A stretch of DNA of 63,363 bases from Candidatus Micrarchaeota archaeon. GTDB lineage: Archaea > Micrarchaeota > Micrarchaeia > Burarchaeales > JAKAKT01. Position numbers and translations under genes: made by a program. The DNA lies in assembly GCA_021813385.1 (NCBI GenBank), contig JAKAKT010000009.1:1-63363 (forward strand), in the 5' to 3' direction. Shown here in pieces: positions 12,488 to 39,511 of the stretch. Each line of letters begins with the position of its first letter. The first letter of the stretch is position 1. The notes under the pieces are model-generated. The model was not told the DNA's origin. It saw only the letters and a program-made list of their open reading frames with translations, and did not search any database.

Positions 12488-12495
12488 TTCATCAT

Positions 12496-15840: not shown

Positions 15841-15893
15841 GAGCCTATTGGGCTTCCAATTGTTTTAAATGTTTTCGAGGCAAAGTCCATTCC

Positions 15894-17312: not shown

Positions 17313-17341
17313 ATTGTCACCAGGAATAATGTATATGGCTA

Positions 17342-17371
17342 GGTATAAAAAAGATTCAGTAGTATATATAC
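17342..17371. promoter_or_regulatory. Probable bidirectional TATA region
   Basis: GGTATAAAAAAG and GTATATATAC lie between the pilin start (17312, minus) and the small plus-strand ORF start (17385). Confidence 0.35.
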
Positions 17372-17597: not shown

Positions 17598-17610
17598 GCC
17601 CCGCAATAAT

Positions 17611-20600
17611 CTATTTCAGCCGCTCCATCTCCCTTTCGACTTTTCTCAGTTCCTCATCGTATTTCTGGGAGAGCTGGTCAAATGAGCCACGGTCCATGCT
17701 GCGTTCCACGAAGTAGTCGCTCTGGACTCTCCTTTGCTTCTCGACTATCTCTTGCTTCTGTTCGAGCAATTTCCTTAGTTTCTCCCTCTTACGTACGAGC
17801 TGCAGGTAATAAGCGGAAACGGACAAGGCAACGAGGAGTATGGCGATTATCGGAATCCAGTAGAGCTTGATGTAATACCAGGGGGAGTAGCCTTGGACCT
17901 TCAATGGAACTTGCGCAATTCCGTAGTTTTCATATGGGTCTCTCGCAAAAATAATCATTGTGTTTGCGCCCTGAAGACCTGGGTCGAGCTCGAGGGACGA
18001 GCCATAAACGCCACGTTCAACCTGCCGGGCGGTTATGCTCCTGTCCTTTAGCCTTACCAGTAGAACAATGTTGTCTGCTGGCTTTTCCTCTGAGTAAGAG
18101 GCCAGGACATTGATGGGGAGAGTCTCGCCTATCGAATAGTCCTGCTTCGCAGGCTCCGTTATCACCAATTTTATAGGGACGTCTGTTATCGCTACGACTG
18201 TCGAGGCAGCGCCTCCGTGGAGAACGCCGTTTTCAGTCTTATACACCCGGCTCTGCAATTCCCATATCCCGCTTGGGTCATCCAGGGATATCTTGTACGT
18301 CGAGCTGTAGACCCCGTCCCCGACCTCCTCAAGTGGGAATGCCTTGTGCTTCGGGCCATAAGCCTTGGCCTGGGCACCTGTGATTGGGTTCCCGGCATCT
18401 GTGACCTTGATGGTAATCGGGACATCCTGCCCTTTAAGGTAGGCCCCCGGCACCGGGCTTAAGTATTCAACTGAGAGGAATTTTTCCGGGACCGGCTCTT
18501 CAACTGCTATCAGCTTCGAAACCATTCTGGTATTGTTATCATCATCAATCACGGTGATGGTTGCAATCCAATTCCCGGCTGAATCAAGGAAGGATGTCCG
18601 GTATGCGAAATCAAAATCCCCCTTGGTCCTCTTGGATTGCTTGCTTATATCCGAATCGTACGCCGAGAGGTCGAGCAAAACTTCGTGCTCCGTGTCATCC
18701 GACCCTCCTGACACATTCCCCGATATGAACACGGTATCGCCAAGCTCAAGCGTTGGTGTGTCAAGGACCATATTTAGGGCAAGGTTGTTGGTTATGAGTA
18801 TTACTGAAGAACGTTTCCCGTTGGAATCCCCTACCCGGGCATCAAAAGAAATTGCCTGGGGCCCGTAGGGAACCCAGCTGCTTATATCGACGTAAGCCCC
18901 GTAAAGCCCATCTCCGGGTGCCCCGTCCCCGTGCATGCCATCATCGTATAGGATGACTTTTCCGAAGAAGCCTGAAGCGCTTACGATGGCGTTCGCGGCT
19001 GGGACGAACTCGGCAAAGACCTTTACTGCCAGGTGCATCCTGTCGCCACGCAAGAAATCTTGGCCGAAGCTTGGCGAGTATATCCTGAGCGAGAGGAATT
19101 CTGGCGGGCAATCGGTTGAGCATGTGAAGAAATTCTCCGGCTTCTCGCAGGCCCCGTTTCCGCAGCAATTTGGAATCGTCGTGCAGGAGCAGCCATCCGG
19201 AGTGCACTTGAACTGGGTGCAATCGCCTGCGCATTTCCCTGAGCATGACCCGCAGTCGGATGGGCAGTTGCATTTGTTCTCCTGCGCGTCGCAGAAGCCG
19301 TTACCGCAGGAGAGGAGGCAGTCTGTGGGACAATTCGTGTTTGACTCGCCGGCGGATGGCTCGCAGATGGAGTTCCCGCAACAGTCTGGCTTTAGGGACT
19401 CGATGCAATCTCCAAGAACGCAGGCGTATTGCTGGCAGGATTTCCCAGGCACGTCGCCCTTGCATGTGGGAGAGCAAGTGGGACTGCAGTCTGAATCATT
19501 AAGGGAAGTGCAGCCGGCCGGGCAGCATCCGTCTTTGCTCAAGCACGAGGTTATCGGGGCATGGGCGCAAATGGCCGAGCAGTTCGAGCCTGAGCATGAA
19601 TCGATTGTGCAGGTGTCGCCGTCGCTGCAGTCTTTCTGTGAAGTGCAGACGCTCTTGCACGAGCCGCCGCAACAGAGGCCACCGCCGGGGCAGGCGTTAC
19701 CGCCGATTGCCAAACCCAATGGGTCGCAGTCAGGGTCAGAGCCATAGCATGATGGACCGGGGCAAGTGCCATCGCAAATTCCACAAGTGCCGCAGTAACC
19801 GATAGTGAATCGCGCAGTAGTGGGATTGTAGCCGAAGAGCGAAGCTTGTACCTCGTATTGGCCAGTTTCGTTGGGAGTGAAGACGTATCTCCCGGCAGCG
19901 TCCGTGAAGCCGGTTTCGACGATTTGCCATAAAACACCTTGGCGGAGTATTTTGATGGAAACGCCTGGGACCGGGCCAGAATCGCTGCTTATTGTTATTG
20001 TCGAAGTCTGGTTCACGCAATTTCCGGATATTGAGGCAGACAGCGAAGGGGTTGGATGCGGGCAATTTGGCGGGCAGCCTGCAGGGGCAGCCTGGATATT
20101 AACGCTCGCGTTAGTTGCTGTCCCGTTTGCAAACCCGTCGAACGGGGTTACCTGGCAAGTCCAGGTCTCGCCGTTAGTGGTGTTCGCTCCTGCCAACAAG
20201 AATGTGGTGCTATTCGTAAAGGTTGTCGCGACTTGCGTGACCCCATTCCACCAGATGTATGTGAAGTTTATGCTGTCGCCATCTGCGTCAGTTGCGAGGG
20301 CCGAGCAAGTGACGTCGCTCCCCTGGGCTGCCGGAGAGGGCGAGATGGAGACGGCAGTTGAGGGCGGCGTGTTGATGATTGTCACAGAAGTCGAGATGTT
20401 CTCGAGCGAATATTTCGAATCCCAGCCTGTGTCAGAACTGTCCTGCGAGCAATTAATCGTATCTCCCCTGTTCCCTGCCCCTGCCTGGGAGAGGTCGAGG
20501 GTCTGCGAGATCTGCCCGGGAATAACTGTCCCATTCAGGAACCATCCCCAAACCCGCGAGCCCTCGGAGTCGTTGTCGGCGTCCGAGAAGGAGCCGTTGT

Positions 20601-23600
20601 TGCAAAGCAAGACCGAATCAGTGTAAGGCGAAGTGTCGTTTATCGACGGGGCTGTTACCCACGGGGCAGTGTTGTTTACAGTAGCTGCCACTGAACCATT
20701 TATCCGGTTTGAGGAATACTCGCCGTCATAAGCCGATACCTCGCAAATCCAAGTGTCGCTCTTTCGCAGGGCCCCTGGGGGGAAGCTGTTCGGGTAGGAA
20801 ATTGACGCATTCGGGACATTATCCAGCGAGACAACAGAATAAGCGGTGCTGTTCCTGTAGAATGTAAAGTTTACTTGCAGGATTGTCGAATTTTCTGCGT
20901 CGGTTATGTTGGCGGAGCAGTTTAGGGAGTCGTTAAGGTAAATCGCTGAACCGATGGGCAGGCACGCAGTTCCCTTGCAAAGGGTGGCGTTGTTTGGGAT
21001 AGGGGCGCTCGAGGTTGTGAGCGTCACCGTGGTGCTGTTCTGCCTCGTGCTGTTCTTCGGGTCATAGCCTGAATCCTCGGACATGTGCTCGCAGATTATC
21101 TGGTCAGTAGCCTGGGCCCCAATGGCGAGAAGGCTTAAGGATTGGCTCGTCTGCCCTCCAAGGACCGACCCATTCCAAAACCAGCGCCAATACCCCATTC
21201 CAGGTTGGTCACCGTCTGCGTCGGAGAATGTTCCGTTGTCGCAGCTGATGGTGCTCGTGTTTATCGGGGAGGTGTTGTTGATGCTCGGCGCACCTATTGA
21301 GGGTGCGGTATTGTTCACAGTGACAGTTGATGAGTTGAGCGCGCTTCCGAATTGCAGGCCATCGTAAGGCCTTGCCTCGCATCCCCAGGTGTCGCTCTTA
21401 TTGACGGCGGCGGCTGGAATGGGCGAAGCAGCATACGCAAATGTAGCATTCGGCACCGCATACCTGATGCTGTCGTATCCAGAAGAATAGCTCCCATTCA
21501 CGAACCATTTGAAGTAGACGTCTATGCTTGAATTGAAGTCATCCGTGACGTTGGCTGAGCAATTCAGCGAGCTTCCCCTGGATATTGGGACCGGGGAGCA
21601 TGTGTCATTTGCGCATATTTGCGTGTTCGAGACCGACGGGGCAATATCGACTGTGACCCAGAGAGGTCCGCTCGAGCCCGTGTTATTCACTGTGTCGTTG
21701 CAGTAAACTGTGAACGAGTGGTTTGTGGAATAGGAAAGCGGGGCCATAGTGGCATACCAAACCGTTGAATTGAGCTGGCTCATCGCGTAGAAACCGGAAC
21801 TGTTCTGAACCAAGCACGAAATTGCCGCTTCGCTTATGCTCACATTGAGGAATACGGAATTCGAGACCTGGTTCGAGTTGTTGCTCGGGGTCGGGGGAAC
21901 GAACGAGACTGTTGGAGTAATTGTGTCAATCCGGACAGTCCTTGGGCCGATGTTCCCGCTGTTGTTCGCCGAATCGTTCACATGCGCAGTGTAAGAGCAA
22001 ATTCCATCGCCCAAGCTCGTCATGTTCCTGTACCAAACAGTCGAGTTCAGTTGGCTCATCGAGTAGAATGTGCCGTTCCAATCTAGAAGAGCGGATATTA
22101 TTCGCTCGTTAGCGCTGACATTGATGTATGCCCAGTTGGTCGATAGGTTGGCATTGTCGCTCGGAGTCGGATAAACGAAAGTTGGAATCGGGTTCACCGT
22201 ATCAACTAAAACCCACCTGGTTTCGCTGTAGCCAAGATTGTTGAGGGAATCGTTGCCTCTTGCCTGGAATGAATAGTTTCCGTCGGCTAGGTTGCTCATG
22301 TTCAGGTACCATTCGATGGAGCTAGTGTTCTGCATGGAGTAATCGGTCCCATTCCAGTTGAGGGTTGCGTTGTCAAGAGCCTTGTCGGATGTCATGTTCA
22401 CGTAGCTCCAGTTGTAATTAATGAACTCGTCATTGTTGGTCGGGAAGACGAAAGTGAGCATCGGGGCGCTGGTGTCAACTGTGACGTTCTGGGTGAGTGA
22501 GGTGCCGTTGTTGCCCAGGGTATCATTTGCCGAAACATTGTATACGTAGGTTCCGTTCGCCAAGCCAGTTATGTTGAAGTACCAGTTTGTCGGTGATGAG
22601 TTGAGCAAGTAATAACTGGTCCCATTCCAGTATACTGATGCGTTATCCACACGCTCGTTAGTTGTCACATTTACAAAGACCCAGTCCCTCGAGGTTGTGG
22701 AATCCGGCCCAGGAGTCATCGACACGAAAGTTATGATGGGGCCGATTGTATCTATCAGGACCCATCTGGTTTCAGTCGTGTTCGTATTCGAGGCAAAATC
22801 GCTAGCATTCGCGAAGAAAGAATAATTGCCATCGCCTAAGCCCGTTCTGTTGAGATACCAGTTGATTCCGCTTCCCCCCATCGGATAGTCCGTCCCGTTC
22901 CAATTCAAGGTTGCATTGGCAAGATTTTCATTCGAAGACAGGTTTACATAACTCCAGGCATAATTCACAGATTCGTTGTTGTGCGTGGGGGAAACCAGGG
23001 TGAGGGCTGGCTGGGTCGTGTCTATCGTCAAGTTCTGAGTAGAGGACGTTCCGGTGTTGTTCGCGCTGTCGTTCGCTTGGACGTAATAGTCATAAGTCCC
23101 TTCGGAAAGGCTCGTCATGTTTCTATACCAACTGGTTGGATTCAGCTGAGAGAACTGATACCAAGTTCCGTTCCAGTTAATCAGGACCGATACCGCATAT
23201 TCGCTCGTCGTTATGTTTACATATGCCCAGTTTTGTGACAAGTTCGAGTTGTTGGGCGGGGTCGGGGTGACGAAGGTGATTACGGGTGAGACTGTGTCGA
23301 TTGTGAGGTTCCTTGTCTCTGAAATCCCCGTGTTGTTTATCGTGTCGTTGGCTGAGACGTTGTAGGTGTAGGTCCCGTTGCCTAGTACTGTCATGTTCCT
23401 GAACCAGTTTGTGGATGAGGATTGGGTCAATGAGTAGAAGGTACCGTTCCAGTTGATTACTGCTGAGATTATTGGCTCATTTGAGGTTATGTTGATGTAG
23501 GCCCAGTTCTGGGAGAGGTTTGAGTCGTTTGGAGGCGTTGGGGTGACGAATGTGATTGCTGGGGCTGAGGTGTCGATTGTGACATTCATCGTTCCTGTGC

Positions 23601-26600
23601 TGCCGGTGTTGTTCACTGAATCGTTAACGTAGACTCGGTAAGCGTAAGAGCCGTTAGACAGCCCAGTCATGTTGCGGTACCAATTTGTCGAAGAGCCCTG
23701 GGTCATTGCGTAATAAGTGCCGTTCCAATCAACTATGGCTGAAACTGTCTCTTCATTTGTTGTGACATTCACATAAACCCAGGATTGGGAGAGGTTTGTG
23801 TTGTTTGCTGGGGTCAGGGGTACGAATGTGACGACTGGGGCAGTATTGTCGATTCTGATTGTGACATATTCGGTTGCATTCGTGTTTGAATAAAGGTCGG
23901 TTGCGTTGATAGTCACATTGTAGTAGCCATCAGACAGGGCAGTTGTAATGAATGTTGCGTTGAAGCTTGTTGCAGTTGTGTTGCTCATTTGGATCCAAGG
24001 AGTTACGTTTCCTGTTGTGTTTGAGAGCCAGTAGTAGACTTTGGAGGCGTCGGGATTAGCATCAGTAACCGTCGCGTTAATCAGAGTTGGGCCACTCACG
24101 TTCTGGTTCGCTGAAGGGGCGGTTATTGTGACGCTGGGGGGCAAATTATCGCCCGCATAAAGAGTCAGGTTAACTGTTGATGACGAGGTTATGTTCATTG
24201 AAGTTGAGTTTATTGCATAATTAGCCAGGCTTGCGTTTATCGTGTGATTAGTGTAGCTCACGTTAGTGCTGCCGTTCATCACCATTTCAGTCACGATGAC
24301 GTAATTAGTTAGGCCTCCCGGATTAGTCAAGTTGTCCGTCATATTTGAAAAGCCAAGGATGTCCGAAATGTTTACGATTGCGTTCTGGAGCGGGGAGCCG
24401 GCTGAGTTCGTGACATTTACGCGGGCGTACCATTGGATTGTGAGATTGTTGATGTCAGTTGTGCCTATAACGACATTCGAGATGTTGAATGTCATGTTCA
24501 GGAATATGTTGTCGTAAACACTCGGGAGGCCGAAATCAGGGCCAACCGCGTAAAAGTTAGTGGCCGAACCATTCGTGATTGTTGAGTTTGCGAAGATTGC
24601 CCGGGTAACTGCACCGAAGTTTGCATCGAGATAAACGGAAGTCGCAGCAGTCGTGATGGTGTTGTTAGTAAGAGCCGTGTCAGTAACAGAGCGTGCAAGA
24701 TACATGCCGAAAGCGCTGCCCCCAGTGGTGGTTATCGTGTTCGAATACACTGAAGTGTTGTACATGTTCCTGTAAACGTATGCGCCATAGCCGGATGAGC
24801 TTAGGATTGTGTTCAGGTAAGCGGAGTTGTTGCTGCCTGTAGTGGAAAAAGTTATGCCCGTTCCTCCTCCGGATGCGTTTATGTTGTTCGAATAGAGCGA
24901 GTTGTTGTAAATCACTGTCACGGCGAATATTCCGCCTCCTGATGAGTTTGCTGTAAGGTTGTTAGAGTAGACTGAAGAGGAATTTGTCCTTGTGAGATAG
25001 ATTGCTGACGCGGTGGTTCCATTTGTTACGACTTTATTCGAGTAGATGTTGTGGAAGCCGCCAATGCTCGCGTAAATCCCGTAGCTCGAGGAGCCATAGG
25101 TGTAGATTGTGTTGTTTTCAACTGTGTTGTTGTCGGCCCCGGTTTGTATCGCGATGGCATAGCTGCTGCTTGTGCTGACATTCCCCTCTGAGAAAATGCA
25201 GTTCTTTATGGTGACATTATCGTAGCCTGTATTGTTTACCCCATATCTTCCATTTACCGAGCCAGTGTCGTATGTGACAATGTGCCCGTTGCAGTCGAGG
25301 AATACATTGTGGGCGGTTATGTTGAAGCATGTTCCAGATGAAGTCACATCGCTGACGAGGGTGGTATTTGCACTTACTTGGCTGCAAATTGTTCCAGGCA
25401 TTTGGTATAGCGTGAGGTTGGTTGTAGAGGTCGAGGTAATGTTTGCTGACGTGGTGTTGATGAGATAGCCCGTAAGGGTCGCGTTAATTGTCTGATTGTT
25501 CAAAGCGAAGTTCCCGGAACTTGAATAGTTTGTGTCGTTCACCACAACGAACCCGGTCAACCCGTTCGAGTTCGTCAGGTTAACGACCATCGCAGGCATC
25601 CCGTTGATGTCCGATATGTTGACAAGCGCGTTCTGCAAAGCAGTACCTGACGAACTGGTAACATTCACGCGCATAAACCACTGGACGAGGAAATCATCTG
25701 TGCCTGCCCAGGAAACGTTCGAGTAGTTCGCAGTCGTGTTCAGGAAAATGTTGTTCACGGAATTAGTCATGGACCGGATAACGTCTGTTGTAACCGAGGA
25801 GTGATGGATTATTGAGTCCGTGAAGTTTGTGTTGTTCGAGTTCTGCATGTATATCCCATAGATTGCGCGGTCCGAGGTGATGTTGTAGAGCCTGTTTGAG
25901 CGAGAGTTCAGCGAATAAATTCCATAACTAGTGCTGTTGATGGAGATATTCTGGAGTAGGTTCCAGTTAGTACTCGAAAACCGCAACCCATAGGTCGCGT
26001 TCTGAATTTTACCATTCTGGAAAGTATTGTTTTCCGGCGGGGGGTCGAGATCTGATTGAAGAGCGTAAAGGGCAGAAGTCGTCCCATTGCCCCTTGTTAT
26101 ATTGAAGTTTGTGACGTTGGTGCCAGAGGAAAGGGATTCGAGGTATATGCCCGTGCCATTGTAGTCATCAACAGAAAGACCCGTTATATTCACCGGGCAG
26201 TTTATCCGGAAGCCTATGTTGCTCACGTTTACGTCAATATTCTGGAAAGACAAGTTTGCAGCGCATGGGTAGACCGTATGAATTCCATATCCGTTTGACA
26301 TGTTCTTTAAGCTCACCTTGGACACTGAAGAGTTTGAGACGTATGTGAAGTAGAGTCCGTAGCCGCGGTAGACATACGTGTCGCCCCCTTGCAGGTAAGC
26401 GCGCCGTCCCGAGCCAAGAAACACCGACGTCTCATCCAGGTAAGCGCCATAGTGGCGGATGTCTTGCTCCAGGGCATTGCTGGAAATCGCCCCGATGCTC
26501 TCGCCTATTGCTTCGGACAGCGTGTAGTGGCGTGACTCATGGTCGTTTCCTGCCGGGTTGACGATGGTGGTGACCAAGGTTCCTGAATGGTTCCTCCCGC

Positions 26601-29600
26601 TGTAGTTGCTTATCAAGAGGCTATCCACTGTATTCGCGTAGATGCCGTAGGCGAAGCCGCCTTTGTCTGCGAATTGCCCGGTTGGCACGGAAGTCACTAT
26701 GTTCCAGTCTGTGTGGTTCGTAATGTTGACGAGACTGCAGCTTATCAGGTTGATTCCGATTGCATTGCTATAGATGGAGCTGCTGCCGTACCCGCAGTCA
26801 TGAATCGTGTTGTTCAGGAAAGAGAGGTTCTGGGAGTTTTGTGCCCATATGCTATTGATGAACTGGGTGATTATGCAGTTCTTTATTGTGATGTTCGATC
26901 TCCCGGACATGTAAACGGCATAAGCGTTGAGGGACGTGGTACCAGTTATTGTGTGGCCGCTGCAGTCTAAGAAAATGTTGTCTGCGGCCATCGTGAAGCA
27001 GGTAGAGCCGGTCTGCGCAGTCACATCGCTGCTTAATGTGGTGTTGTGGTAAACGCTCTTGCAGTCAGTTGTTGGGATAGTCAGATTCACTTGCGTCATT
27101 CCGGTAATGTTGTAAACAGTGAGATTGGATGACCCGTCTGCCCATGAGGCGTAGAACGTGTGGTTGTTGTAATTGAATGACTGGACTGAGTTCTGGGTCT
27201 CTTCGGTAATGGAGTAATAGGCAGTCGGATTGGGGGTCGATGAACCGGAATAGATTGTGCGGCCGTTTGTTTCGTTGATTTGGAACGAGCCGCCAGCTCC
27301 CAACTGGTCTCCGAATTTATCTGTGAAATTGATCCGGACAGGCCAGGCGAAGCTCAGGTTCCCGGACAAAAGTAAAATATTGTTCCTGTTGAACGACGTG
27401 CAGTTGAAGATTATGTCATCGGTCGACACGTCGGTGTTCACTGCATCGTACGAAGTAGCGGATGCGAAGGAGGAAGTGTTGATTGTGTTCCAGTTCGAGG
27501 AAGATGCAAACTCGAGGTTGTCCACATTCCCGATAAAACTGTTGTTAAAGACATTATTTAGACTTGATGACTCGATTGTAAGCCCTGAGCCGCTCGAGTT
27601 GAGCGTGTTGTTCGAAAGAAGTGAGCTATTGGTTGAGTTAAAGTAAACGGAACGCTGGTAATCGCTTACAATGCAGTTCTTTATCGTTATGTTTTTCCTG
27701 CCCTCGGCGTATATCCCATAGCCCGCATCAGCGGAGTCGTTCCCGGTTATCCTATGGCCGGCGCAGTCAAGAGCTACGTTGTCGGCCGAGAAAGTGACAC
27801 AGGTTCCGTTCGAGGCGAGGTTTGACAGGAGTGTCGTGTTCACGCTTACCTGAAGGCATTCCGAAAGGTAAAGGCTGGCATTATATGTCTGCGATGATGT
27901 GACGTTCAGGCTTGATGAGTTGAATGCGCCTGCCTTTGAAACGTTGATTGTGTAATTGTTGAACGTGAAATTGTTGGTTGAGTTCATGTAAGTGATGTTG
28001 ATTAGGGTGAAGTTGGTAAGGCCGCTCGAATTTGTGACGCTCTGGACCATTATCTGTTTTCCATAAGCATCTGTGATATTCACTAGTGCGCCGCTGACCG
28101 GGCCTCCGAGATAGTAGGTTGCATTTACCCGCAGGTAATGCTGGAGGGTCAGGTTGTTTGTCCCGCTTCCCCAGGCGAATGTTGATGGCCCAGAGTAGCC
28201 ATATTGTGGTGGACCCCGGATTATGTTGTTCAGGGAAGTCTGGTTCGAAGTTATTTCCCTGACATAAGTACTCGCAAATGACGAGTTCTCGATAACATTC
28301 GAAGAGCTCGCGTTGAGATATATTGAATAGTTCTGGTAATCGAAAAACTCGTTGATGAACTGGTTCGAGTTCGAGGACTCGAGGATGACGTCGTAATTGT
28401 TATAAAAGAATGTCAGGTCAGAGAAGTTGTTTCCAGACGAGGAGTTCAGGTAGGCGCCGATTTGGTTAAGGTAAACTTGGCATCCACTGGTATTCAATGT
28501 GTTGTTGTGGGAATCCGAGAGGTAGGCCCCATAGAAGTTTCTCCAAGGGCAGCCGAACCCCCGGATGCTGCTCCTGTTCGTTCCTGAGAGCATTATGCCG
28601 GCGGAATAATTTATCGGGTAGCAGTCCTTTATGGTTATGTTCGTCCTCCCGGGCGCATAAATGGCGTAGGTGCCCAAAGTATGGTTCCCGACTATCCCCT
28701 TGCTTCCGCAGTCGAGCGTTATGTTGTCTGCCCCGAAAGTGAAGCAGGTGTCGTTGTAGTATATGTCCACTCCCGTGTAAAGGCTCTGCGTCAATACTCC
28801 GCAATCGTACTGGGTGAATGTGATTGTCTTGGTGCTCGTCACGTTGTTGGTTTTTGTCTGGAACTGGGAGAATGATACGTTTATCATGTGGTTGTTGAAC
28901 GAGAAGTTCTGCAGCACCGAGCCAGATTTGTTCATAATCATCTCGTTGGCTATGGCCCAGTTGGTGTAACCGTTCGAGCCCGTTAAGTTGTCAATCATCA
29001 ACTGCTTTCCGTAGGCATCCGAGATGTTAACTATTGCCCCTTGTATCGGGGAAACGTTGGTCGCATAAACGCGCAAGTACCACTGGACGGTCAGGTTGCA
29101 GGGCGAGCACGTCCCGAACCCGACCTTGCTTGTATTGAAAGTGGAATTGAGAATTGTGTTGTTCTGGGAGCTCCCGTCTAGATAGATGTCGCTAGTTGAA
29201 GTCTGGGAGATTGTTGAGTTCGACATGTTGTAATCGGTCGTGCTCGCGCCTGTGAGATAAACCCCGTAGCCGTTCCCATAGGCGAGCCCGGTGCTCCCGG
29301 GGTTGCCACGAGTCGAGTTCGTGAGAGTAGATGTCTTGATAACCCCGTACCTGCCCGCGGCGGTGACGACGTAGCTCGTTCCCCCAATCCCGGCAGTACT
29401 CGAACATGCCGTTGGATCTCCCCCGTTCCCAGCGGTGAAGTACGAGAGGGTCGCGTTCTCAATGGTTGCGTTTGCATTTGTTGCGCTTACATTGAATCCG
29501 AAGGAATCTCCCCCTGCCCCTCCTGTTCCGCTACCAATGTCACCGCAGTCCCCAGCAGTCCCTCCTGACCCACCAGTTACGTTGTTTATCGAACCGGTGA

Positions 29601-32600
29601 ATATGTTGTTCGCCGAGCGCAGATAGACTCCGCCCCCGGCTCCGCCGTTGCCTCCGTTGGCGTTGGTGTTGACCGAGGGAGTCGTCCCTCCGTTCCCCCC
29701 TGTTCCGCCAAAGACCTGGGAGATGCTCATCAGGAGCATCGAATTGTTCGCTGAGCCGCTGTCAGTTATGTAGATTGCGTAGGTTAATCCTCCGGCGCTC
29801 CCGTTCCCTCCGTATTTGAGTCCGGTCGCATTGCCGCCGTCCCCTCCGTTCCCGCCCGTCAGTCTTGTGAGCGTGTCGCTTGTGAATGTGGTGTTCAAGG
29901 AGTTGCTAATCAGATAAATCCCGTAAATACTCCCACCCACTCCGCCGTTGCAACCATTGCTGCTCGCTCCAGACCCGTTCCCGCCGGTCCCGCCTTTCCC
30001 GCCCGAAAGGTTTGAAATCGCATTGCTCGCAATCGAATTGTTTTTCGAGTTCGTGAGGCTGATTCCGTACAGCGAGTACCCGTCTCCCCCATTAGTGCAG
30101 GAAGCGCCATTGTTCCCACCGGTTCCAGCGACTCCGCTCGTGTTATAAATCGTGTTGCTGGTTATGAAACTGTTATTCGTGCCGGTGAAGAGGATGGCGG
30201 TCGTGTAGTTGCTTATGAGGCAGTTCTTTACTGTTATGTTATTCCTACCGCTCGCGAGAACCCCGTAGGCATTGGCCTGGGTGCCGGTTATCGTGTAGCC
30301 AGCGCAGTCCAAGGTGATGTTGTCCGCCCCGATTGTCATGCAGGTACTCGTAGTCGAAGCGATGCTGTTTGTGAGCGTCGTGTCTGAGTATATTGTAGCG
30401 CAACCGGAGTATAAGGAAAAGTTCAGCGTTAATGTGCCCGTGATATTGATATTTGTCGTATTGAAGAGAGACGAACTGCTCACGTTGATTGTGTGGTTGT
30501 TGAATGTGAAGTTTTGGCTCGGCCCCATATACATCTCAGTGACTGTTGCCCAGTTCGTGAGGCCATCGGAGCCGGTTAGGTTGTTCGCAATTACTTGCTT
30601 CCCATAGATATCTGAGATGTTCACGAGCGCGTTTTGGACGGGCGAGCCTGACGGGCCGGTAACGTTTACCCTCACATACCACTGGAGAGTTAGGTTGCTG
30701 GTCGCATCCAGGGTCACTTGTGATTTGTTGAAAGTCATGTTGAGGAATATGATGTTGTAGGCATTGTAAGAAACAAGGTTAAGCGCCGAGCCGTTTGTTA
30801 TCGTTGAGTTCTCGAAGCTGTTGTTGCGGATATACCCCGTGCTTCCATCGAAATACAGCGAAGCTGCCGCTGTTGTTATGGTGTTGTTCCAGAACCTGTT
30901 GTCGTATATGATCTGTTTCAGATGTATCCCATAAGCACTGCTTCCGGTTGTAGTTATGGAATTTGAATAAACCAAGCTGTTTGAAACTCCAATCCAGAGA
31001 TAAAGGCCGTCACTGCTTGAACTGTTTGTAGTGATGTTGTTGAAGGAAATCGCCGTGTTGTTGACTCCGCCGCTAGCTAAGTAAACACCAATGCTTGAAG
31101 TGCCGTTCGTGGAGATTCTGTTCGAGGTTATGTTATTGTTGGGTGAGGTCGAAGCAACATAAACGCCTTCGCTGCCTGATCCATAAGTGGTGATTGTGTT
31201 GTTTATCACGCTGTTATTGTTCGCATTGGTGAAGAAGACCCCGTGCTTGCTGCTTGTGCTTGTGTTTCCATCGATTAGGACGCAGTTTTGAACAGTCGTG
31301 CGGTTGTAGCCGGTATTGTTGACGCCGTACCTGGCATTGTTCGGGCCTGTCCCGTAGGTTATTGAAAATCCGTTGCAGTCAAGCGTGATATCATTCGCCA
31401 ATATCGTGAAGCAGGTATCGTTTGAGTTTACGTTGCTGTTCAATGTAGTGTTCGAGGTTAGGTTTCCGCAGATTGAGGGGGTTAGGGATACTTCGGCGTA
31501 TGAAGACACGTTGTAGGTCGAGTCCGAGCAGGTGAAGTTCGCGCCCCAGGTGTCATACCAGCTCAAGTTGCCCGATGAGATATTCGACGGATTCATGCTA
31601 ACATTCGAGCTGATTGTATTATTGCCCTGGAAATAGGGGGAAATTGTAAGATTATCGAACTCGTAGAAGAGCGCCTGCGCGTTGCTTGCGTCATCGAGAA
31701 GGAAGCCGATTGTGAACATGCTGTTCGCAATGTTTTGGTTCATGAACGATGCGTTCGTTGCGCTCCAGGCGTTCCAGGTGGTGGCGGGGATGTAGTTGGT
31801 CTTGTTGCTCAGGGAATTTGTCGTATTGCCGGCGCCACAGTTGGTGGTCTGGGAGAGGTTGTGGCAAGGAGTGACGTTGCCTGCCCAAATGTACGCAGTT
31901 ACATTGAGCGCCTGGGAGGTGTGATATCCTCTCCACCACCAGGAAATGTTGTAGGTCCCGGAGGAAAGCGGGAGTTTGAATGCCCGGTAAGCCCACAAGC
32001 TCCCTTGCCCGGTGTTGTCAGTGCGGGCGTGGAAATCCGGGGAAGGAACCCCGTCGCTTGAGTTCTGAGAGACAATCCATCCGCTTCCTGGGTCCGATGC
32101 GGTATACCTGTCCTCGGAGATCCCATACCAGCCATTCGTGCAGTTCGTGCAGAACGAGTTGCTCGGCGAGCAGGATGACCAGGAAGCGCATGTCCAGTTG
32201 CCATCAAACAGGTTTCGGAGGTTCCATAGGTAAGAAAGGTTCAGCGTCGGATTGTCCGGGTCGTTGCAGGTTACGTTCAGTTTGAGGGTGTCTGAAGTTA
32301 TTGGGGAAGTTGGGGTGATTCGCGTCTCTACGACTGTCGGAGTGAGGTTGAGGTTGTGGGTGATTTCCAGGTACGGGCCGTTCGCCAATCCGCACACATC
32401 GAAACCGCGTTCGTAGTCAGGGTCAAGGATGGATCCAATATCGAGGGAATTTTTATAAGCGGCACCGACTACTGGGTAGTAGTCTGGATGGTTTATCCTG
32501 ATTGTGAGGTTCTTCTCGCCTGCCCCGTATGCCGCCTTGGTGATGTTCGTGACGTTGATGCACATGTAGCCGCCTGGCGCGTCATAAAAACTGTAGGCAG

Positions 32601-34374
32601 TCGTAACGTTGTCATAAACCATTGCTTGATATTGTGAACCGGTTAATGACCAGGTAGTGGTCCAGCTTTGGTTCGTTATATGGGAGACGTTCGCCCTGTA
32701 GTCGAGAAGAGCAGGAAAGGTGTTGGGGTGAAGGCACAACGTGGAGTTCTGTATCGTTTCCCCGCTTGCAAGATTCGAAATGTCCCACTTGATTTGGATT
32801 TCTATAGGCCAGGACCCAGCATTTTGATAACCATACAGGTGAATTAGGCAGTAAGTATCCGTGAACTGCGTCGTCGGGTCTATTTCAATCGGGTAAACCG
32901 AGCGCATCAGCCATGAGAGCGGGACTGAAGTTGCGTAAAACGTCCTGCCGTTCCCCTGGAAAATCCCTGCCGGCATTGCCTTCGTGTCCGGGTATGGGAT
33001 TTCCCTCCCGTCAATAAGGGCTTTCGAGGAGTCCAAAGCGAGCGAAGGGAGGAAGGAATAGGCTTTCGAGCCGGACGAATCGAGGAAATCTATTTTTGAA
33101 AGAGTTTCCTCCCCGTTGGGAAGAGCAACCCCGTTTGCTGTGGGCGTTAAGCCATCGATGTCGACTTCAGACAAGAAATATATCGGGGTATCCTGGGGCA
33201 GGCCCAAGCCGGCAACAAGGGACCTGAACTCATCAGTTAATGTTATCGTTTCCTTGAACCTTCCGCTCTCGTAATCATATCTTATGTCGGTCCCTGTGAA
33301 TACTGTCGGGTATGTGACTGAGTTCTCATTCGGGATTCCAATTGAGGATGAAGAAATCTGTATATACGAGAGCCCGCCCCAGGAAGGGTCCTTGTATGCT
33401 ATTGCGAAAGGCTTCATCCCGAGCTTCTTGCCTCCCTTCTCTGCGAGCACAGGCCAAGCTGAACTGGCATCAGGTTTGAAATACGCTTTATAGGCTCCTT
33501 TCTCAACACCAGTCCGGTAGTCGCTGGAATAAAGCGGGTTGTCTTCGGGAAGTTCCACAATCGAGAGGTTGATTGGCGAGTATTCGGACCCGTTCCAATA
33601 GTCGGAAGAGGTCCCGTAGAAAGTATCTGTGTCGCTGTTGCCTTCGATTAATCTCCCATGGGCTTCTCCTACCGGAGTCACCTCTTTCTTCGCCCTTGCC
33701 GCATTTACTGTTTCTTTGGCAGGGCAAATGCTTGCATAGCGGCCCTTTACGCTCGTAACACCAAAAGGCGAGTAGAATGATGCATTCCAGGTCCCATTTG
33801 TGCAGGGAGTGACGTTATAGCGGAGGAGGAACGCCCTCTTTGCGCCCTCCTTGAAGGAGAAATGGGATTCGTCGACAGGAATCCATCTGTAGTAATCAAC
33901 TTCCTCTTCTGAGCCGTCCGCCTTCTTCTTCGCCTCATGACCGAAAAACGTCGATTGCCAGAGGGTTGCTTCCCGCGGGGCTTCAGAAAAACCAAGGGTA
34001 AAGTAAACCTTGAAGTCATTTATCTCGCCCGCAAGGTTCTCGAGGTTGAACTGGGATTCGCACTTCCCATCCTTGGAGCACAGGGCCAGTTTTTCATTGG
34101 AGGCAAAGAAACCGCTCTCCTTCTGCAGTTTCTTTGCTTCTGAGGTGTGGCTCGGGCTTATTTCCGGTCTCGCCTTCGGAAGCTCGGAGTATTTCGAGAT
34201 GTCGAGCTTGTGCCCTATGACCTGCGCATCTTTCAGGCTCGCCTTGAATTCAGCTGGAGCCCCCGCGTCAACCCCCACTTGGGCGGGGAGAGCGAGGAGT
34301 AATAGTAGGGAAAACGCTAAGCCTAACGGGAGAATTGCTATTATCCCACGTGAAACTGAATGCTTTTTTTGCAT
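17611..34374 (-). CDS. Giant (5,587 aa) modular, membrane-anchored surface protein, putative glycosylated adhesin
   Basis: Uninterrupted 16,764-nt ORF with an N-terminal signal-like hydrophobic segment. Six parallel-beta-helix-like modules are followed by about nine tandem Ig-like units, PKD/cadherin-like units, a Cys-rich region and about four further Ig-like domains. One C-terminal TM (about 17806-17860) precedes a K/E/R-rich tail. N-x-S/T sequons occur throughout. Confidence 0.9.
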   Translation of the reverse strand: MQKKHSVSRGIIAILPLGLAFSLLLLLALPAQVGVDAGAPAEFKASLKDAQVIGHKLDISKYSELPKARPEISPSHTSEAKKLQKESGFFASNEKLALCSKDGKCESQFNLENLAGEINDFKVYFTLGFSEAPREATLWQSTFFGHEAKKKADGSEEEVDYYRWIPVDESHFSFKEGAKRAFLLRYNVTPCTNGTWNASFYSPFGVTSVKGRYASICPAKETVNAARAKKEVTPVGEAHGRLIEGNSDTDTFYGTSSDYWNGSEYSPINLSIVELPEDNPLYSSDYRTGVEKGAYKAYFKPDASSAWPVLAEKGGKKLGMKPFAIAYKDPSWGGLSYIQISSSSIGIPNENSVTYPTVFTGTDIRYDYESGRFKETITLTDEFRSLVAGLGLPQDTPIYFLSEVDIDGLTPTANGVALPNGEETLSKIDFLDSSGSKAYSFLPSLALDSSKALIDGREIPYPDTKAMPAGIFQGNGRTFYATSVPLSWLMRSVYPIEIDPTTQFTDTYCLIHLYGYQNAGSWPIEIQIKWDISNLASGETIQNSTLCLHPNTFPALLDYRANVSHITNQSWTTTWSLTGSQYQAMVYDNVTTAYSFYDAPGGYMCINVTNITKAAYGAGEKNLTIRINHPDYYPVVGAAYKNSLDIGSILDPDYERGFDVCGLANGPYLEITHNLNLTPTVVETRITPTSPITSDTLKLNVTCNDPDNPTLNLSYLWNLRNLFDGNWTCASWSSCSPSNSFCTNCTNGWYGISEDRYTASDPGSGWIVSQNSSDGVPSPDFHARTDNTGQGSLWAYRAFKLPLSSGTYNISWWWRGYHTSQALNVTAYIWAGNVTPCHNLSQTTNCGAGNTTNSLSNKTNYIPATTWNAWSATNASFMNQNIANSMFTIGFLLDDASNAQALFYEFDNLTISPYFQGNNTISSNVSMNPSNISSGNLSWYDTWGANFTCSDSTYNVSSYAEVSLTPSICGNLTSNTTLNSNVNSNDTCFTILANDITLDCNGFSITYGTGPNNARYGVNNTGYNRTTVQNCVLIDGNTSTSSKHGVFFTNANNNSVINNTITTYGSGSEGVYVASTSPNNNITSNRISTNGTSSIGVYLASGGVNNTAISFNNITTNSSSSDGLYLWIGVSNSLVYSNSITTTGSSAYGIHLKQIIYDNRFWNNTITTAAASLYFDGSTGYIRNNSFENSTITNGSALNLVSYNAYNIIFLNMTFNKSQVTLDATSNLTLQWYVRVNVTGPSGSPVQNALVNISDIYGKQVIANNLTGSDGLTNWATVTEMYMGPSQNFTFNNHTINVSSSSLFNTTNINITGTLTLNFSLYSGCATIYSDTTLTNSIASTTSTCMTIGADNITLDCAGYTITGTQANAYGVLASGRNNITVKNCLISNYTTAILFTGTNNSFITSNTIYNTSGVAGTGGNNGASCTNGGDGYSLYGISLTNSKNNSIASNAISNLSGGKGGTGGNGSGASSNGCNGGVGGSIYGIYLISNSLNTTFTSDTLTRLTGGNGGDGGNATGLKYGGNGSAGGLTYAIYITDSGSANNSMLLMSISQVFGGTGGNGGTTPSVNTNANGGNGGAGGGVYLRSANNIFTGSINNVTGGSGGTAGDCGDIGSGTGGAGGDSFGFNVSATNANATIENATLSYFTAGNGGDPTACSSTAGIGGTSYVVTAAGRYGVIKTSTLTNSTRGNPGSTGLAYGNGYGVYLTGASTTDYNMSNSTISQTSTSDIYLDGSSQNNTILNSTFNTSKVGFGTCSPCNLTVQWYLRVYATNVSPIQGAIVNISDAYGKQLMIDNLTGSNGYTNWAIANEMIMNKSGSVLQNFSFNNHMINVSFSQFQTKTNNVTSTKTITFTQYDCGVLTQSLYTGVDIYYNDTCFTFGADNITLDCGSKGIVGNHTLGTYAIYAPGRTNITIKDCYPINYSAGIMLSGTNRSSIRGFGCPWRNFYGAYLSDSHNNTLNTSGCQVYLNQIGAYLNSSSGNNFSDLTFFYNNYDVILESSNSNQFINEFFDYQNYSIYLNASSSNVIENSSFASTYVREITSNQTSLNNIIRGPPQYGYSGPSTFAWGSGTNNLTLQHYLRVNATYYLGGPVSGALVNITDAYGKQIMVQSVTNSSGLTNFTLINITYMNSTNNFTFNNYTINVSKAGAFNSSSLNVTSSQTYNASLYLSECLQVSVNTTLLSNLASNGTCVTFSADNVALDCAGHRITGNDSADAGYGIYAEGRKNITIKNCIVSDYQRSVYFNSTNSSLLSNNTLNSSGSGLTIESSSLNNVFNNSFIGNVDNLEFASSSNWNTINTSSFASATSYDAVNTDVSTDDIIFNCTSFNRNNILLLSGNLSFAWPVRINFTDKFGDQLGAGGSFQINETNGRTIYSGSSTPNPTAYYSITEETQNSVQSFNYNNHTFYASWADGSSNLTVYNITGMTQVNLTIPTTDCKSVYHNTTLSSDVTAQTGSTCFTMAADNIFLDCSGHTITGTTSLNAYAVYMSGRSNITIKNCIITQFINSIWAQNSQNLSFLNNTIHDCGYGSSSIYSNAIGINLISCSLVNITNHTDWNIVTSVPTGQFADKGGFAYGIYANTVDSLLISNYSGRNHSGTLVTTIVNPAGNDHESRHYTLSEAIGESIGAISSNALEQDIRHYGAYLDETSVFLGSGRRAYLQGGDTYVYRGYGLYFTYVSNSSVSKVSLKNMSNGYGIHTVYPCAANLSFQNIDVNVSNIGFRINCPVNITGLSVDDYNGTGIYLESLSSGTNVTNFNITRGNGTTSALYALQSDLDPPPENNTFQNGKIQNATYGLRFSSTNWNLLQNISINSTSYGIYSLNSRSNRLYNITSDRAIYGIYMQNSNNTNFTDSIIHHSSVTTDVIRSMTNSVNNIFLNTTANYSNVSWAGTDDFLVQWFMRVNVTSSSGTALQNALVNISDINGMPAMVVNLTNSNGLTGFVVVNDTNYSSSGNFALNNQTINATLTGYLINTTSANITSTSTTNLTLYQMPGTICSQVSANTTLVSDVTSSGTCFNITAHNVFLDCNGHIVTYDTGSVNGRYGVNNTGYDNVTIKNCIFSEGNVSTSSSYAIAIQTGADNNTVENNTIYTYGSSSYGIYASIGGFHNIYSNKVVTNGTTASAIYLTRTNSSSVYSNNLTANSSGGGIFAVTVIYNNSLYSNNINASGGGTGITFSTTGSNNSAYLNTILSSSGYGAYVYRNMYNTSVYSNTITTTGGSAFGMYLARSVTDTALTNNTITTAATSVYLDANFGAVTRAIFANSTITNGSATNFYAVGPDFGLPSVYDNIFLNMTFNISNVVIGTTDINNLTIQWYARVNVTNSAGSPLQNAIVNISDILGFSNMTDNLTNPGGLTNYVIVTEMVMNGSTNVSYTNHTINASLANYAINSTSMNITSSSTVNLTLYAGDNLPPSVTITAPSANQNVSGPTLINATVTDANPDASKVYYWLSNTTGNVTPWIQMSNTTATSFNATFITTALSDGYYNVTINATDLYSNTNATEYVTIRIDNTAPVVTFVPLTPANNTNLSQSWVYVNVTTNEETVSAIVDWNGTYYAMTQGSSTNWYRNMTGLSNGSYAYRVYVNDSVNNTGSTGTMNVTIDTSAPAITFVTPTPPNDSNLSQNWAYINITSNEPIISAVINWNGTFYSLTQSSSTNWFRNMTVLGNGTYTYNVSANDTINNTGISETRNLTIDTVSPVITFVTPTPPNNSNLSQNWAYVNITTSEYAVSVLINWNGTWYQFSQLNPTSWYRNMTSLSEGTYDYYVQANDSANNTGTSSTQNLTIDTTQPALTLVSPTHNNESVNYAWSYVNLSSNENLANATLNWNGTDYPMGGSGINWYLNRTGLGDGNYSFFANASDFASNTNTTETRWVLIDTIGPIITFVSMTPGPDSTTSRDWVFVNVTTNERVDNASVYWNGTSYYLLNSSPTNWYFNITGLANGTYVYNVSANDTLGNNGTSLTQNVTVDTSAPMLTFVFPTNNDEFINYNWSYVNMTSDKALDNATLNWNGTDYSMQNTSSIEWYLNMSNLADGNYSFQARGNDSLNNLGYSETRWVLVDTVNPIPTFVYPTPSDNANLSTNWAYINVSANERIISALLDWNGTFYSMSQLNSTVWYRNMTSLGDGICSYTAHVNDSANNSGNIGPRTVRIDTITPTVSFVPPTPSNNSNQVSNSVFLNVSISEAAISCLVQNSSGFYAMSQLNSTVWYATMAPLSYSTNHSFTVYCNDTVNNTGSSGPLWVTVDIAPSVSNTQICANDTCSPVPISRGSSLNCSANVTDDFNSSIDVYFKWFVNGSYSSGYDSIRYAVPNATFAYAASPIPAAAVNKSDTWGCEARPYDGLQFGSALNSSTVTVNNTAPSIGAPSINNTSPINTSTISCDNGTFSDADGDQPGMGYWRWFWNGSVLGGQTSQSLSLLAIGAQATDQIICEHMSEDSGYDPKNSTRQNSTTVTLTTSSAPIPNNATLCKGTACLPIGSAIYLNDSLNCSANITDAENSTILQVNFTFYRNSTAYSVVSLDNVPNASISYPNSFPPGALRKSDTWICEVSAYDGEYSSNRINGSVAATVNNTAPWVTAPSINDTSPYTDSVLLCNNGSFSDADNDSEGSRVWGWFLNGTVIPGQISQTLDLSQAGAGNRGDTINCSQDSSDTGWDSKYSLENISTSVTIINTPPSTAVSISPSPAAQGSDVTCSALATDADGDSINFTYIWWNGVTQVATTFTNSTTFLLAGANTTNGETWTCQVTPFDGFANGTATNASVNIQAAPAGCPPNCPHPTPSLSASISGNCVNQTSTITISSDSGPVPGVSIKILRQGVLWQIVETGFTDAAGRYVFTPNETGQYEVQASLFGYNPTTARFTIGYCGTCGICDGTCPGPSCYGSDPDCDPLGLAIGGNACPGGGLCCGGSCKSVCTSQKDCSDGDTCTIDSCSGSNCSAICAHAPITSCLSKDGCCPAGCTSLNDSDCSPTCSPTCKGDVPGKSCQQYACVLGDCIESLKPDCCGNSICEPSAGESNTNCPTDCLLSCGNGFCDAQENKCNCPSDCGSCSGKCAGDCTQFKCTPDGCSCTTIPNCCGNGACEKPENFFTCSTDCPPEFLSLRIYSPSFGQDFLRGDRMHLAVKVFAEFVPAANAIVSASGFFGKVILYDDGMHGDGAPGDGLYGAYVDISSWVPYGPQAISFDARVGDSNGKRSSVILITNNLALNMVLDTPTLELGDTVFISGNVSGGSDDTEHEVLLDLSAYDSDISKQSKRTKGDFDFAYRTSFLDSAGNWIATITVIDDDNNTRMVSKLIAVEEPVPEKFLSVEYLSPVPGAYLKGQDVPITIKVTDAGNPITGAQAKAYGPKHKAFPLEEVGDGVYSSTYKISLDDPSGIWELQSRVYKTENGVLHGGAASTVVAITDVPIKLVITEPAKQDYSIGETLPINVLASYSEEKPADNIVLLVRLKDRSITARQVERGVYGSSLELDPGLQGANTMIIFARDPYENYGIAQVPLKVQGYSPWYYIKLYWIPIIAILLVALSVSAYYLQLVRKREKLRKLLEQKQEIVEKQRRVQSDYFVERSMDRGSFDQLSQKYDEELRKVEREMERLK
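21655..24150 (-). repeat. Tandem array of about nine ~92-95-aa Ig-like units inside the giant ORF
   Basis: Recurrent unit boundary (I/V)D(T/N)xxPxx(T/S)FVxPTPxNxSNLSQxW.Y(V/I)N(V/I)T...WNGT.Y...W(Y/F)(R/L)NM(T/S).L..G.Y.Y. Boundaries seen near 23850, 23570, 23290, 23010, 22740, 22460, 22190 and 21910. Coordinates are approximate. Confidence 0.7.
24150..31490 (-). repeat. Six large beta-helix modules (about 260-560 aa each) inside the giant ORF
   Basis: Each module opens with C-x-T-x-x-A-D/H-N-(I/V)-x-L-D-C-x-G-x-x-I-T and N-(I/V)-T-(I/V)-K-N-C. Each closes with NLT(L/V/I)QW(Y/F).RVN(V/A)T...(A)(L/I)VNI(S/T)D..G. Module starts lie near 31480, 30395, 28800, 27850, 27060 and 25385 (approximate). 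Confidence 0.65.
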
Positions 34375-34403: not shown

Positions 34404-34412
34404 TAATAAATA
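34404..34412 (-). promoter_or_regulatory. TATA-like box upstream of the giant ORF
   Basis: Minus-sense TATTTATTA is centred about 34 nt upstream of the ATG at 34374, implying a near-leaderless transcript. Confidence 0.3.
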
Positions 34413-34540
34413 GGTTTTGTTTTTTTCGAATGCGTAGGAAAAGAGAACAGTACTCGAGGTGGAGCCAAAGGACGCCAAAAAACCTTGGAGGAACGAAAGA
34501 ATAAATAGTGGTTCGTGCAATTCTTCCTTAAGGTGATCGG

Positions 34541-39459: not shown

Positions 39460-39511
39460 TGGCGCGGTGGATATTAAATGATTGCCTGCCTAATTTGGGT
39501 AAACTGTGGTG

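Follow-up and report, generated by a model that had tools for sequence, protein, structure and literature searches.

The minus strand of contig JAKAKT010000009.1 (assembly GCA_021813385.1, Candidatus Micrarchaeota archaeon), whose 63,363 nucleotides were analyzed as a whole and are referred to here as the window, carries a single gene of 16.8 kb encoding a putative surface protein of 5,587 amino acids (aa), hereafter the giant protein. From the N to the C terminus, this protein comprises a signal peptide, a head of several beta domains, a long shaft of right-handed beta-helix and immunoglobulin-like (Ig-like) modules, and a C-terminal anchor cassette composed of a Cys-rich stalk, four Ig-like domains, a transmembrane (TM) helix and a short cytoplasmic tail (Table 1). 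Searches against Pfam, NCBIfam and PDB sequences returned generic domains only, and an earlier note on the same DNA had likewise been unable to name a matching family; PDB sequence and profile searches gave no meaningful match for any part of the protein.

Membrane topology of the giant protein

The open reading frame (ORF) is open throughout and ends in one terminal stop, as described in the earlier note, which had reported an uninterrupted 5,587-aa ORF on the minus strand. A TATA-like box preceded by a run resembling a B recognition element (BRE) suggests that the gene is transcribed from an archaeal promoter of its own and that the leader is very short. A Kyte-Doolittle scan of the whole protein revealed exactly two hydrophobic segments, residues 6-39 and 5499-5528. 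The first is the signal-like N-terminal segment of the earlier note and corresponds to a Sec-type signal peptide; the second contains a core (WIPIIAILLVALSVSAYY, residues 5506-5523) that maps to positions 17806-17859, where a single C-terminal TM helix had been placed (about 17806-17860). The tail behind the helix, previously described as K/E/R-rich, heptad-like and about 65 residues long, comprises 59 residues (67 if counted from AYY) with 18 K+R and 14 D+E, and two short helix-prone stretches within it fit a heptad pattern, with hydrophobic residues at 5 of 8 and 6 of 7 a/d positions. The topology is that of a type I membrane protein, with K/R-rich sequence following the TM helix. NCBIfam models for archaeosortase sorting signals (PGF-CTERM and similar) gave no match, the C terminus consisting of the TM helix and a conserved tail.

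Table 1. Features of the giant gene and its product in the 63,363-nt window
Feature	Residues	Window positions	Strand	Basis
TATA-like box CTATTTATTA, A-rich BRE-like run before it		34404..34413	-	read from sequence, ~34 nt upstream of ATG
Complete ORF, 5,587 aa + stop	1-5587	17611..34374	-	5,587 sense codons open, ATG start, one terminal stop
Sec-type signal peptide, hydrophobic core 10-30, predicted cleavage ...ALPA/QVG	1-31	34282..34374	-	hydropathy scan
N-terminal beta domain, family-specific	~45-235	33670..34242	-	found only in P0001, P0002, P0003; no Pfam match
"Domain X", widespread extracellular beta domain	~236-505	32860..33669	-	most of 162 relatives align here
Carbohydrate-binding module, CBM96/DNRLRE-like (predicted)	~506-672	32359..32859	-	PF24517 matches of homologues; structure model
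Short Ig-like repeat unit	~673-722	32209..32358	-	matches multi-copy ~50-aa repeats in P0005, P0008, P0017
CBM4/CBM61-like beta-sandwich (predicted)	~723-925	31600..32208	-	homologues P0009, P0014, P0018, P0029, P0047; structure model
Six tandem modules (right-handed beta-helix + CarboxypepD_reg-like beta-sandwich)	~965-3408	24151..31482	-	Pfam, self-comparison, motifs
Nine tandem 92-aa Ig-like units (Big_7/Big_13)	3409-4250	21625..24150	-	Pfam, 276-nt spacing
Two ~212-aa super-units + partial third	4251-4795	19990..21624	-	self-comparison; Ig-like by sequence character, DADGD motifs
CarboxypepD_reg-like beta-sandwich	4796-4860	19795..19989	-	Pfam 3.4e-7, just under gathering score
Cys-rich stalk: 47 Cys, two CCGNxxCE repeats, 2 sequons	4861-5110	19045..19794	-	invariant Cys columns in alignment A2
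Four membrane-proximal Ig-like domains, ending VQGYSPWYY	5111-5498	17881..19044	-	alignment A2
Single TM helix	5499-5528	17791..17880	-	hydropathy scan
Conserved cytoplasmic tail, motif Q..YF..[RK]S[MI]D+..F..L..KY[DE]EEL	5529-5587	17614..17790	-	alignment A2

Host lineage and orthologues

The topoisomerase I (Topo I) encoded in the window is 86%, 84% and 69% identical to those of three metagenome-assembled genomes (MAGs) of Micrarchaeota, and most of the 80 retained Topo I matches, all of the closest included, are titled Micrarchaeota or Micrarchaeia. The gene context is archaeal, with an archaeal CCA-adding enzyme, DtdA, a tRNA-splicing endonuclease and an archaellin. The guess of the earlier note, a small-genome episymbiotic archaeon, was right at the phylum level, since Topo I and the relatives of the anchor cassette place the organism in Micrarchaeota (DPANN). 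Orthologues of the giant protein were identified in other Micrarchaeota (P0001, P0002, P0151, P0152, L005 and L006). Giant orthologues diverge faster than housekeeping proteins: in the genome SRP141376_co3_467, the C terminus of the orthologue is 49% identical to that of the giant protein, versus 69% for Topo I.

Integrity of the assembly

The possibility that the gene is an assembly artefact, i.e., a repeat-driven chimera, several genes fused into one or a product of repeat collapse, was weighed against the DNA repeats and independent assemblies, and we regard it as very improbable, although the ENA ERZ27237554 and Logan SRR13300764 assemblies break within the gene. No tandem arrays were detected in the gene DNA by TRF. 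Direct repeats in the DNA show 62-83% identity at best, never exceeding 83% over 35 nt, and repeats at the protein level are 40-60% identical, so that collapse of repeats is unlikely. The 3' end of the gene is covered by independent contigs of Logan SRR13300764 (5.9 kb of the gene) and ENA ERZ27237554 (2.7 kb), which are identical to the window at 100% over 17.5 kb and 99.99% over 13.1 kb, respectively, when compared at full length. On the 5' side, contigs of both assemblies enter the giant gene by 2.1 kb (Logan) and 5.5 kb (ENA), as judged from the upstream gene that they share with the window. Each of the two flanking genes is carried on five records of 50-200 kb, the orthologue P0001 is colinear with the giant protein over residues 47-3104, and locus L005 runs from the Ig super-units into the anchor cassette in one frame.

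A near-counterpart of the contig is present at NCBI (DAHXPG010000006.1, GCA_027364455.1). The NCBI record L001 differs from window positions 2496-25840 at 5 of 23,345 positions, whereas no difference separates the window from the Logan contig L002 (100% identity); the window may therefore come from another assembly, a sibling one, of this population.

Domain architecture of the shaft

Internal repeats were located by a tiled self-comparison of the giant protein. The six beta-helix modules noted earlier were recovered by this comparison, by six beta-helix cap motifs (residues 998, 1355, 1887, 2202, 2469 and 3026), each followed by a "QWYxRVNVT" beta-sandwich, and by Pfam matches above the gathering scores to NosD (PF05048; E-value 8.3e-13, 48.7 bits, gathering score 23.6) and Beta_helix (PF13229; 2.1e-9, 37.7 bits, gathering score 25.9). 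Module 1 was modeled by AF2 as a beta-helix; module 2 is Gly-rich. The following tandem Ig-like units, previously counted as about nine, are nine in number, share 40-60% aa identity with each other, and match Big_13 in five stretches (4.8e-30, 104.5 bits) and Big_7 (1e-7, 32.9 bits), both above the gathering scores. The super-units behind them are 61% conserved in the orthologue L005. The label "PKD/cadherin-like", which had been attached to this part of the protein, found no support in Pfam: neither PKD, PKD_4 nor cadherin matched residues 4251-4795, and the only match within residues 4251-4860 is the CarboxypepD_reg-like stretch. Among the families that the earlier note had proposed for profile searches, Beta_helix/NosD and Big were thus matched, CarboxypepD_reg scored just under its gathering score, and DNRLRE/CBM96 was reached via homologues and a structure model.

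Domain architecture of the head

An exhaustive HMMER search for relatives of the N-terminal region yielded 162 matches among 1.84 billion representatives. Word-indexed searches with the N-terminal 958 residues and with residues 235-720 returned no matches, which, given these 162 relatives, reflects failures of the index rather than an absence of relatives; a scan of a genome collection using N-terminal peptides found no relatives either. The region of about 950 residues that the earlier note had placed at the N terminus and left unassigned splits into five domains. The N-terminal beta domain is all-beta in its model, with a predicted local distance difference test (pLDDT) score of 60-84. Domain X is modeled with pLDDT >90 and has neither a Pfam model nor a confident PDB match; in other proteins, it co-occurs with LamG, PKD, beta-helix and M28 peptidase domains.

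The next domain is predicted to be a carbohydrate-binding module (CBM) of the CBM96/DNRLRE type. The homologues P0010, P0013 and P0022 align to residues ~500-700 and match PF24517 (best E-value 1.9e-23, P0013), and the model of the region matches a chondroitin-sulfate-binding CBM (8wab_A; prob 1.00, TMt 0.55). It is followed by a single copy of a short Ig-like unit; the very large proteins P0005 (5,318 aa), P0008 and P0017 have up to 26 copies of this ~50-aa unit. The model of the last domain matches TmCBM61 (2xon, TMt 0.61), CBM4 (1gui, 0.56), a hyaluronan-binding module (4d0q, 0.55) and CBM11. As judged from homologues and models, the head appears to carry two CBM-like folds, and glycan binding is predicted for it.

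Sequons and predicted glycosylation

The giant protein contains 324 N-x-S/T sequons (x not Pro; 131 NxS and 193 NxT), versus 134±9.8 expected and a maximum of 170 in 2,000 shuffles of the same residues, and the reversed motif [ST]xN occurs 151 times. The density amounts to 5.8 sequons per 100 aa in the whole protein and 7.3 in residues 501-4750, and is 16-fold lower in 31 other genes of the window (0.36). Both ends are sequon-poor, with 5 sequons in the first 500 residues and, within a sparse C-terminal stretch of ~840 residues, 4 in the last ~730, and the C-terminal cassette is sequon-poor in all relatives. Similar densities were found in the orthologues P0001 (6.1) and P0002 (5.0), and in colinear alignments of 34-50% identity, 96 of the 160 aligned sequons (~60%) are positionally common to the giant protein and P0001. 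The excess, being above shuffles and kept in orthologues, is therefore a conserved property for which amino-acid composition alone is insufficient. Expression of N-glycosylation genes has been reported for Micrarchaeota, as has a glycosylated surface-layer (S-layer) protein (bioRxiv 10.1101/2021.04.28.441871). As far as its sequence can tell, the giant protein is probably heavily N-glycosylated.

In a range of 5-15 kb from the giant gene, the window encodes a GT2 glycosyltransferase (39506-40195, plus strand), a PMT_2/GT-C-type membrane glycosyltransferase (46272-47762, minus strand) and a DUF2207 membrane protein (48271-50163, plus strand). No AglB/STT3 gene is present within the 63-kb window. 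Organisms of the Micrarchaeota type are reportedly unable to make their own activated sugars.

The C-terminal anchor cassette and its relatives

The Cys-rich stalk and the "about four" Ig-like domains that had been noticed before the TM helix were delineated in an alignment of 10 proteins (A2), in which the last ~700 residues of the giant protein align end to end with complete proteins of 800-1,100 aa having their own signal peptides. The 41 invariant columns of A2 include the Cys pattern, the VSGYSxxYY pre-helix junction, and the Q and Y of the cytoplasmic motif; within the tail, Q802, Y805 and L787 are invariant or near-invariant in A2. Pfam at E<=1 offered no credible match to the N-terminal domain, residues 720-960, the Cys-rich stretch, the Ig domains of the C terminus or the tail. 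The Myxococcal cysteine-rich repeat (PF13948/DUF4215), carried by many phmmer relatives (PF13948), did not match residues 4861-5110 at this threshold. A "choice-of-anchor X" motif was found at residues 5141-5164 (NCBIfam NF041940, 4.5e-6), and relatives of the membrane-proximal Ig domains carry MG2 (PF01835).

Among the 185,579 species genomes scanned, only 26 loci cover the greater part of the cassette, with alignments that begin between query residues 1 and ~290 and end at 824-838; all of these loci are in MAGs titled Micrarchaeota, Micrarchaeia, Iainarchaeum, Parvarchaeota or plain "archaeon". The Cys-rich repeat alone is also present in Myxococcota, bacteria of the candidate phyla radiation (CPR) and Woesearchaeota. 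The stand-alone DPANN cassette proteins (P0155, P0159-P0165; L007-L030, L155, L156), annotated as hypothetical, share with the giant protein the C-terminal ~700 residues at 24-33% identity, including the CCGNxxCE repeats, four Ig domains, VSGYSxxYY junction, TM helix and tail motif (Q..YF..SID...Y..L..KYEEEL in the cassette family). In place of the 4,800-aa shaft and head, these proteins, 800-1,100 aa in total length, have N-termini of the DUF2341 or MG2 type.

In the stand-alone loci, a short paralogue of ~380-406 aa, consisting of Ig domains, a TM helix and the common tail motif, lies nearby or follows the cassette gene. In 19 of the 26 cassette loci, a gene for a KaiC/RecA-like ATPase (PF06745) is located no more than a few kb away, often together with response-regulator genes; at the three giant-type loci (the 63-kb window, L005 and L006), no KaiC-like gene was found by tblastn in the DNA available there. 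The strict conservation of the cytoplasmic tail argues for an intracellular partner, and the KaiC-like neighbor of the stand-alone relatives is a candidate for this role. The cluster of cassette protein, short paralogue and KaiC/RecA-like ATPase was observed in L007-L030, L155 (2093-7276) and L156 (5217-10181), and no description of it was found in the literature.

Neighboring genes

The giant gene is followed, after ~300 nt, by an archaellin gene (193 aa, TTG start, 16731-17312, minus strand), which encodes a class III signal peptide (MTNKKGA/VGIGTLIIFIAMVLVAA), has its own TATA-like box (17341-17348), and matches PF01917 (1e-30) and TIGR02537. A functional unit of archaellin and giant protein was considered and rejected, as this adjacency is not conserved beside the relatives of the giant gene. 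A 70-aa ORF between the giant stop and the archaellin promoter (17386-17598, plus strand) has no family match and is possibly spurious. Between the archaellin gene and a gene for cobalamin-dependent methionine synthase lies a gene for a metallo-beta-lactamase (MBL) fold hydrolase matching the anti-Pycsar Apyc1 family (PF23023; 15894-16646, plus strand); the minus-strand ORF that overlaps it (15828-16532) is probably spurious.

The methionine synthase MetH (11567-15840, minus strand) is a full-length, five-domain protein of 1,114 aa, and the window also encodes an MTHFR. The only relatives recovered in pattern scans are bacterial, with 35-37% identity (Opitutaceae L004, Omnitrophota L036), which may point to horizontal acquisition. 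Elsewhere in the window, an OrfB/TnpB gene of the IS605 family (4266-5384, plus strand), encoding OrfB_IS605 and Cas12f1-like TNB domains, is found ~2 kb from tRNA-Thr(GGT) (7299-7370, plus strand), the only tRNA gene of the window.

Discussion

With moderate confidence, we interpret the giant protein as a long glycan-binding tether of the Micrarchaeota cell, directed either to a host or to a biofilm. In the proposed mechanism, the Sec signal peptide would direct export, and the C-terminal helix would stay in the membrane with the 59-aa tail in the cytoplasm. The four Ig domains and the disulfide-rich stalk, poor in sequons, would span the zone beside the membrane and the S-layer; the paucity of sequons in the cassette fits a region buried under an S-layer. 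Beyond it, a shaft of ~4,200 residues of Ig-like and beta-helix modules with about one sequon per 14 residues would hold out a distal head of ~900 residues, and we estimate that the extended protein could measure 100-200 nm. Given the type I topology, it is the N-terminal head that would be most distant from the membrane. The head, composed of CBM96-like and CBM4/61-like domains and two uncharacterized beta domains, would bind glycans of a partner, such as those of the glycocalyx or S-layer of a host, or the exopolysaccharide of a biofilm. This interpretation is supported by the combination of the topology, the CBM-like head, the presumably rigid and sequon-dense shaft, the sequon-poor cassette and the fast divergence of orthologues; fast divergence is usual in proteins that recognize partners. 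The earlier note had arrived at a giant glycosylated adhesin or envelope fiber, an idea to which type I topology, Ig/beta-helix architecture and the two CBM-like folds of the head lend support, with the adhesin function and its target still being predictions.

Several observations weigh against a tether. The beta-helix modules could be catalytic, CBM-like folds are common in enzymes too, and part of the sequon excess could be due to structural Asn/Thr ladders of the beta-helices. PF24517 does not match residues 1-958 of the giant protein itself at E<=0.1, and the CBM96 assignment of residues ~506-672 relies on homologues and a model with a mean pLDDT of 74. As both short-read assemblies break inside the gene, residues ~1840-3620 lie outside the independent contigs that could be read. 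Finally, MetH and MTHFR suggest more metabolic autonomy than in classical ARMAN organisms, and the organism is possibly less dependent on a host.

The main rival to the tether is a cell-bound machine for polysaccharide degradation, in which one or more of the six beta-helix modules, targeted by the CBMs to glycans of a host or biofilm, would act as glycoside hydrolases (GHs) or lyases of the disaggregatase, GH87, pectate-lyase or tailspike type and would let the cell feed on a glycan layer or breach it. The order of CBM followed by beta-helix is a typical layout of carbohydrate-active enzymes, homologues have matches to CBM96/DNRLRE and Disaggr_repeat, and the best Foldseek matches for the model of residues 700-1300 are the catalytic domain of a GH87 alpha-1,3-glucanase (E-value 1.4e-6), the polysaccharide lyase RbmB, a polygalacturonase and phage tailspikes. 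However, the TM-scores of the enzyme matches are 0.25-0.29 at a root-mean-square deviation of ~18 Å, indicating a generic arrangement of beta-sandwich and beta-helix. At the sequence level, no GH or polysaccharide lyase family was matched in Pfam or NCBIfam and no PDB chain either, no catalytic residues were identified, and six tandem helices interleaved with Ig domains resemble elements of a shaft. We consider a degrading machine unlikely.

Similarly unlikely, in our view, is a self-directed component of the envelope, namely a glycocalyx or spacer fiber that would protect the cell or organize its own S-layer or its position in a biofilm without recognizing a host. The extreme density of sequons would make a dense glycan coat, and the organism has more metabolism (MetH, MTHFR, an ECF transporter) than minimal symbionts. 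Biofilm formation is said, in the title of one paper (PMC8975820), to be important for the cultivation of Micrarchaeota. On the other hand, a distal head with two CBM-like folds and rapid divergence are better explained by partner recognition, and a single 16.8-kb gene would be a costly way to make a passive coat.

A more speculative reading, which we hold to be rather doubtful, concerns the cassette: it may be a DPANN-specific device for outside-in coupling, in which the tail would dock a KaiC-type ATPase and the engagement of the head with a host would be reported to the cytoplasm, as in integrins. If true, the giant gene would encode a version of this sensor with a reach of 150 nm.

That the giant protein forms the S-layer of the organism, or a stalk of it, is very improbable, and this reading was rejected. 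In its favor are the size, the membrane anchor and the probable glycosylation of this surface protein, and archaeal surface-layer proteins are known to contain beta-helix and PKD-type domains (Jing et al. 2002, as cited in PMC5498576). Yet the giant protein has no match to S_layer_N, S_layer_C or TIGR01567 in Pfam and NCBIfam, and its 5,587 residues are far beyond the range of 40-200 kDa given in 10.1101/2021.04.28.441871, where the S-layer protein of Micrarchaeota, SLP_Mh, is described as a protein of ~101 kDa with an N-terminal S-layer domain and homologues throughout the phylum.

Least probable of all is membership in the SPEARE type, i.e., surface proteins of Nanohaloarchaeota coupled to a VirB4/TraG-like secretion ATPase that would deliver effectors to the host (SVXNc_0300, 9,409 aa; BNXNv_0298, 8,880 aa; PMC10266531): DPANN genomes of ~1 Mb, a Sec signal, an enormous Ig-rich ectodomain, C-terminal membrane anchorage and a proposed host interaction are shared features, but SPEARE proteins have a VirB4/TraG-like ATPase domain in the cytoplasm and a second VirB4-like gene downstream of their own, whereas the giant protein has a cytoplasmic part of 59 residues with no ATPase domain in Pfam or NCBIfam, an archaellin gene downstream, six beta-helix modules and a CBM-like head, and no sequence similarity to SPEARE proteins surfaced in any search, so that membership was rejected in the absence of both a VirB4-like domain and a VirB4-like neighbor.

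The proposed tether can also be compared with other large surface proteins. With the Methanosarcina-type surface proteins (NosD/PbH1, PKD, DNRLRE/CBM96, disaggregatase-related), it shares right-handed beta-helices with a C...LDC.G cap, a CBM96/DNRLRE-like module and Ig-like spacers; it differs from them in its six helices per chain, the conserved tail behind its type I anchor, head domains for which Pfam has no model, and its sequon density, and neither Disaggr_repeat nor Disaggr_assoc matches the giant protein itself. Bacterial giant repeat adhesins of the Big/BapA/LapA type follow the same logic, a rod of Ig-like repeats presenting ligand-binding domains. They are anchored by a type 1 secretion system (T1SS) retention module or by sortase, whereas the giant protein is archaeal, anchored by a TM helix and equipped with N-glycosylation sequons. 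The beta-helix fold also resembles that of glycan-binding or glycan-cleaving tailspikes of phages; with both the adhesins and the tailspikes, the similarity is limited to the level of the fold.

The candidate molecules so far proposed for host finding and attachment in DPANN archaea come mainly from Nanohaloarchaeota and Nanoarchaeota. Giant membrane-anchored surface proteins are already a DPANN theme: they were reported as candidates for host interaction (PMC10266531), and large surface proteins and LamG expansions were reported in the micrarchaeote Mia14 (PMC5498576). The family described here, with its head, six-helix shaft and DPANN-restricted cassette, is new in that it is unnamed in Pfam and NCBIfam, has no solved relative and is not described in the papers searched. 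Current views are not overturned by it; a known theme is extended by a new family, in a way that would not surprise a specialist. With its 324 partly conserved sequons, the giant protein would offer studies of N-glycosylation an unusually rich substrate. Its head (residues 45-925) is a defined, expressible unit and provides a concrete candidate from Micrarchaeota for tests of glycan binding, and the cassette shared across Micrarchaeota and Iainarchaeota MAGs, with its conserved tail and KaiC-like neighbor, leads to a testable hypothesis of signaling across the membrane.

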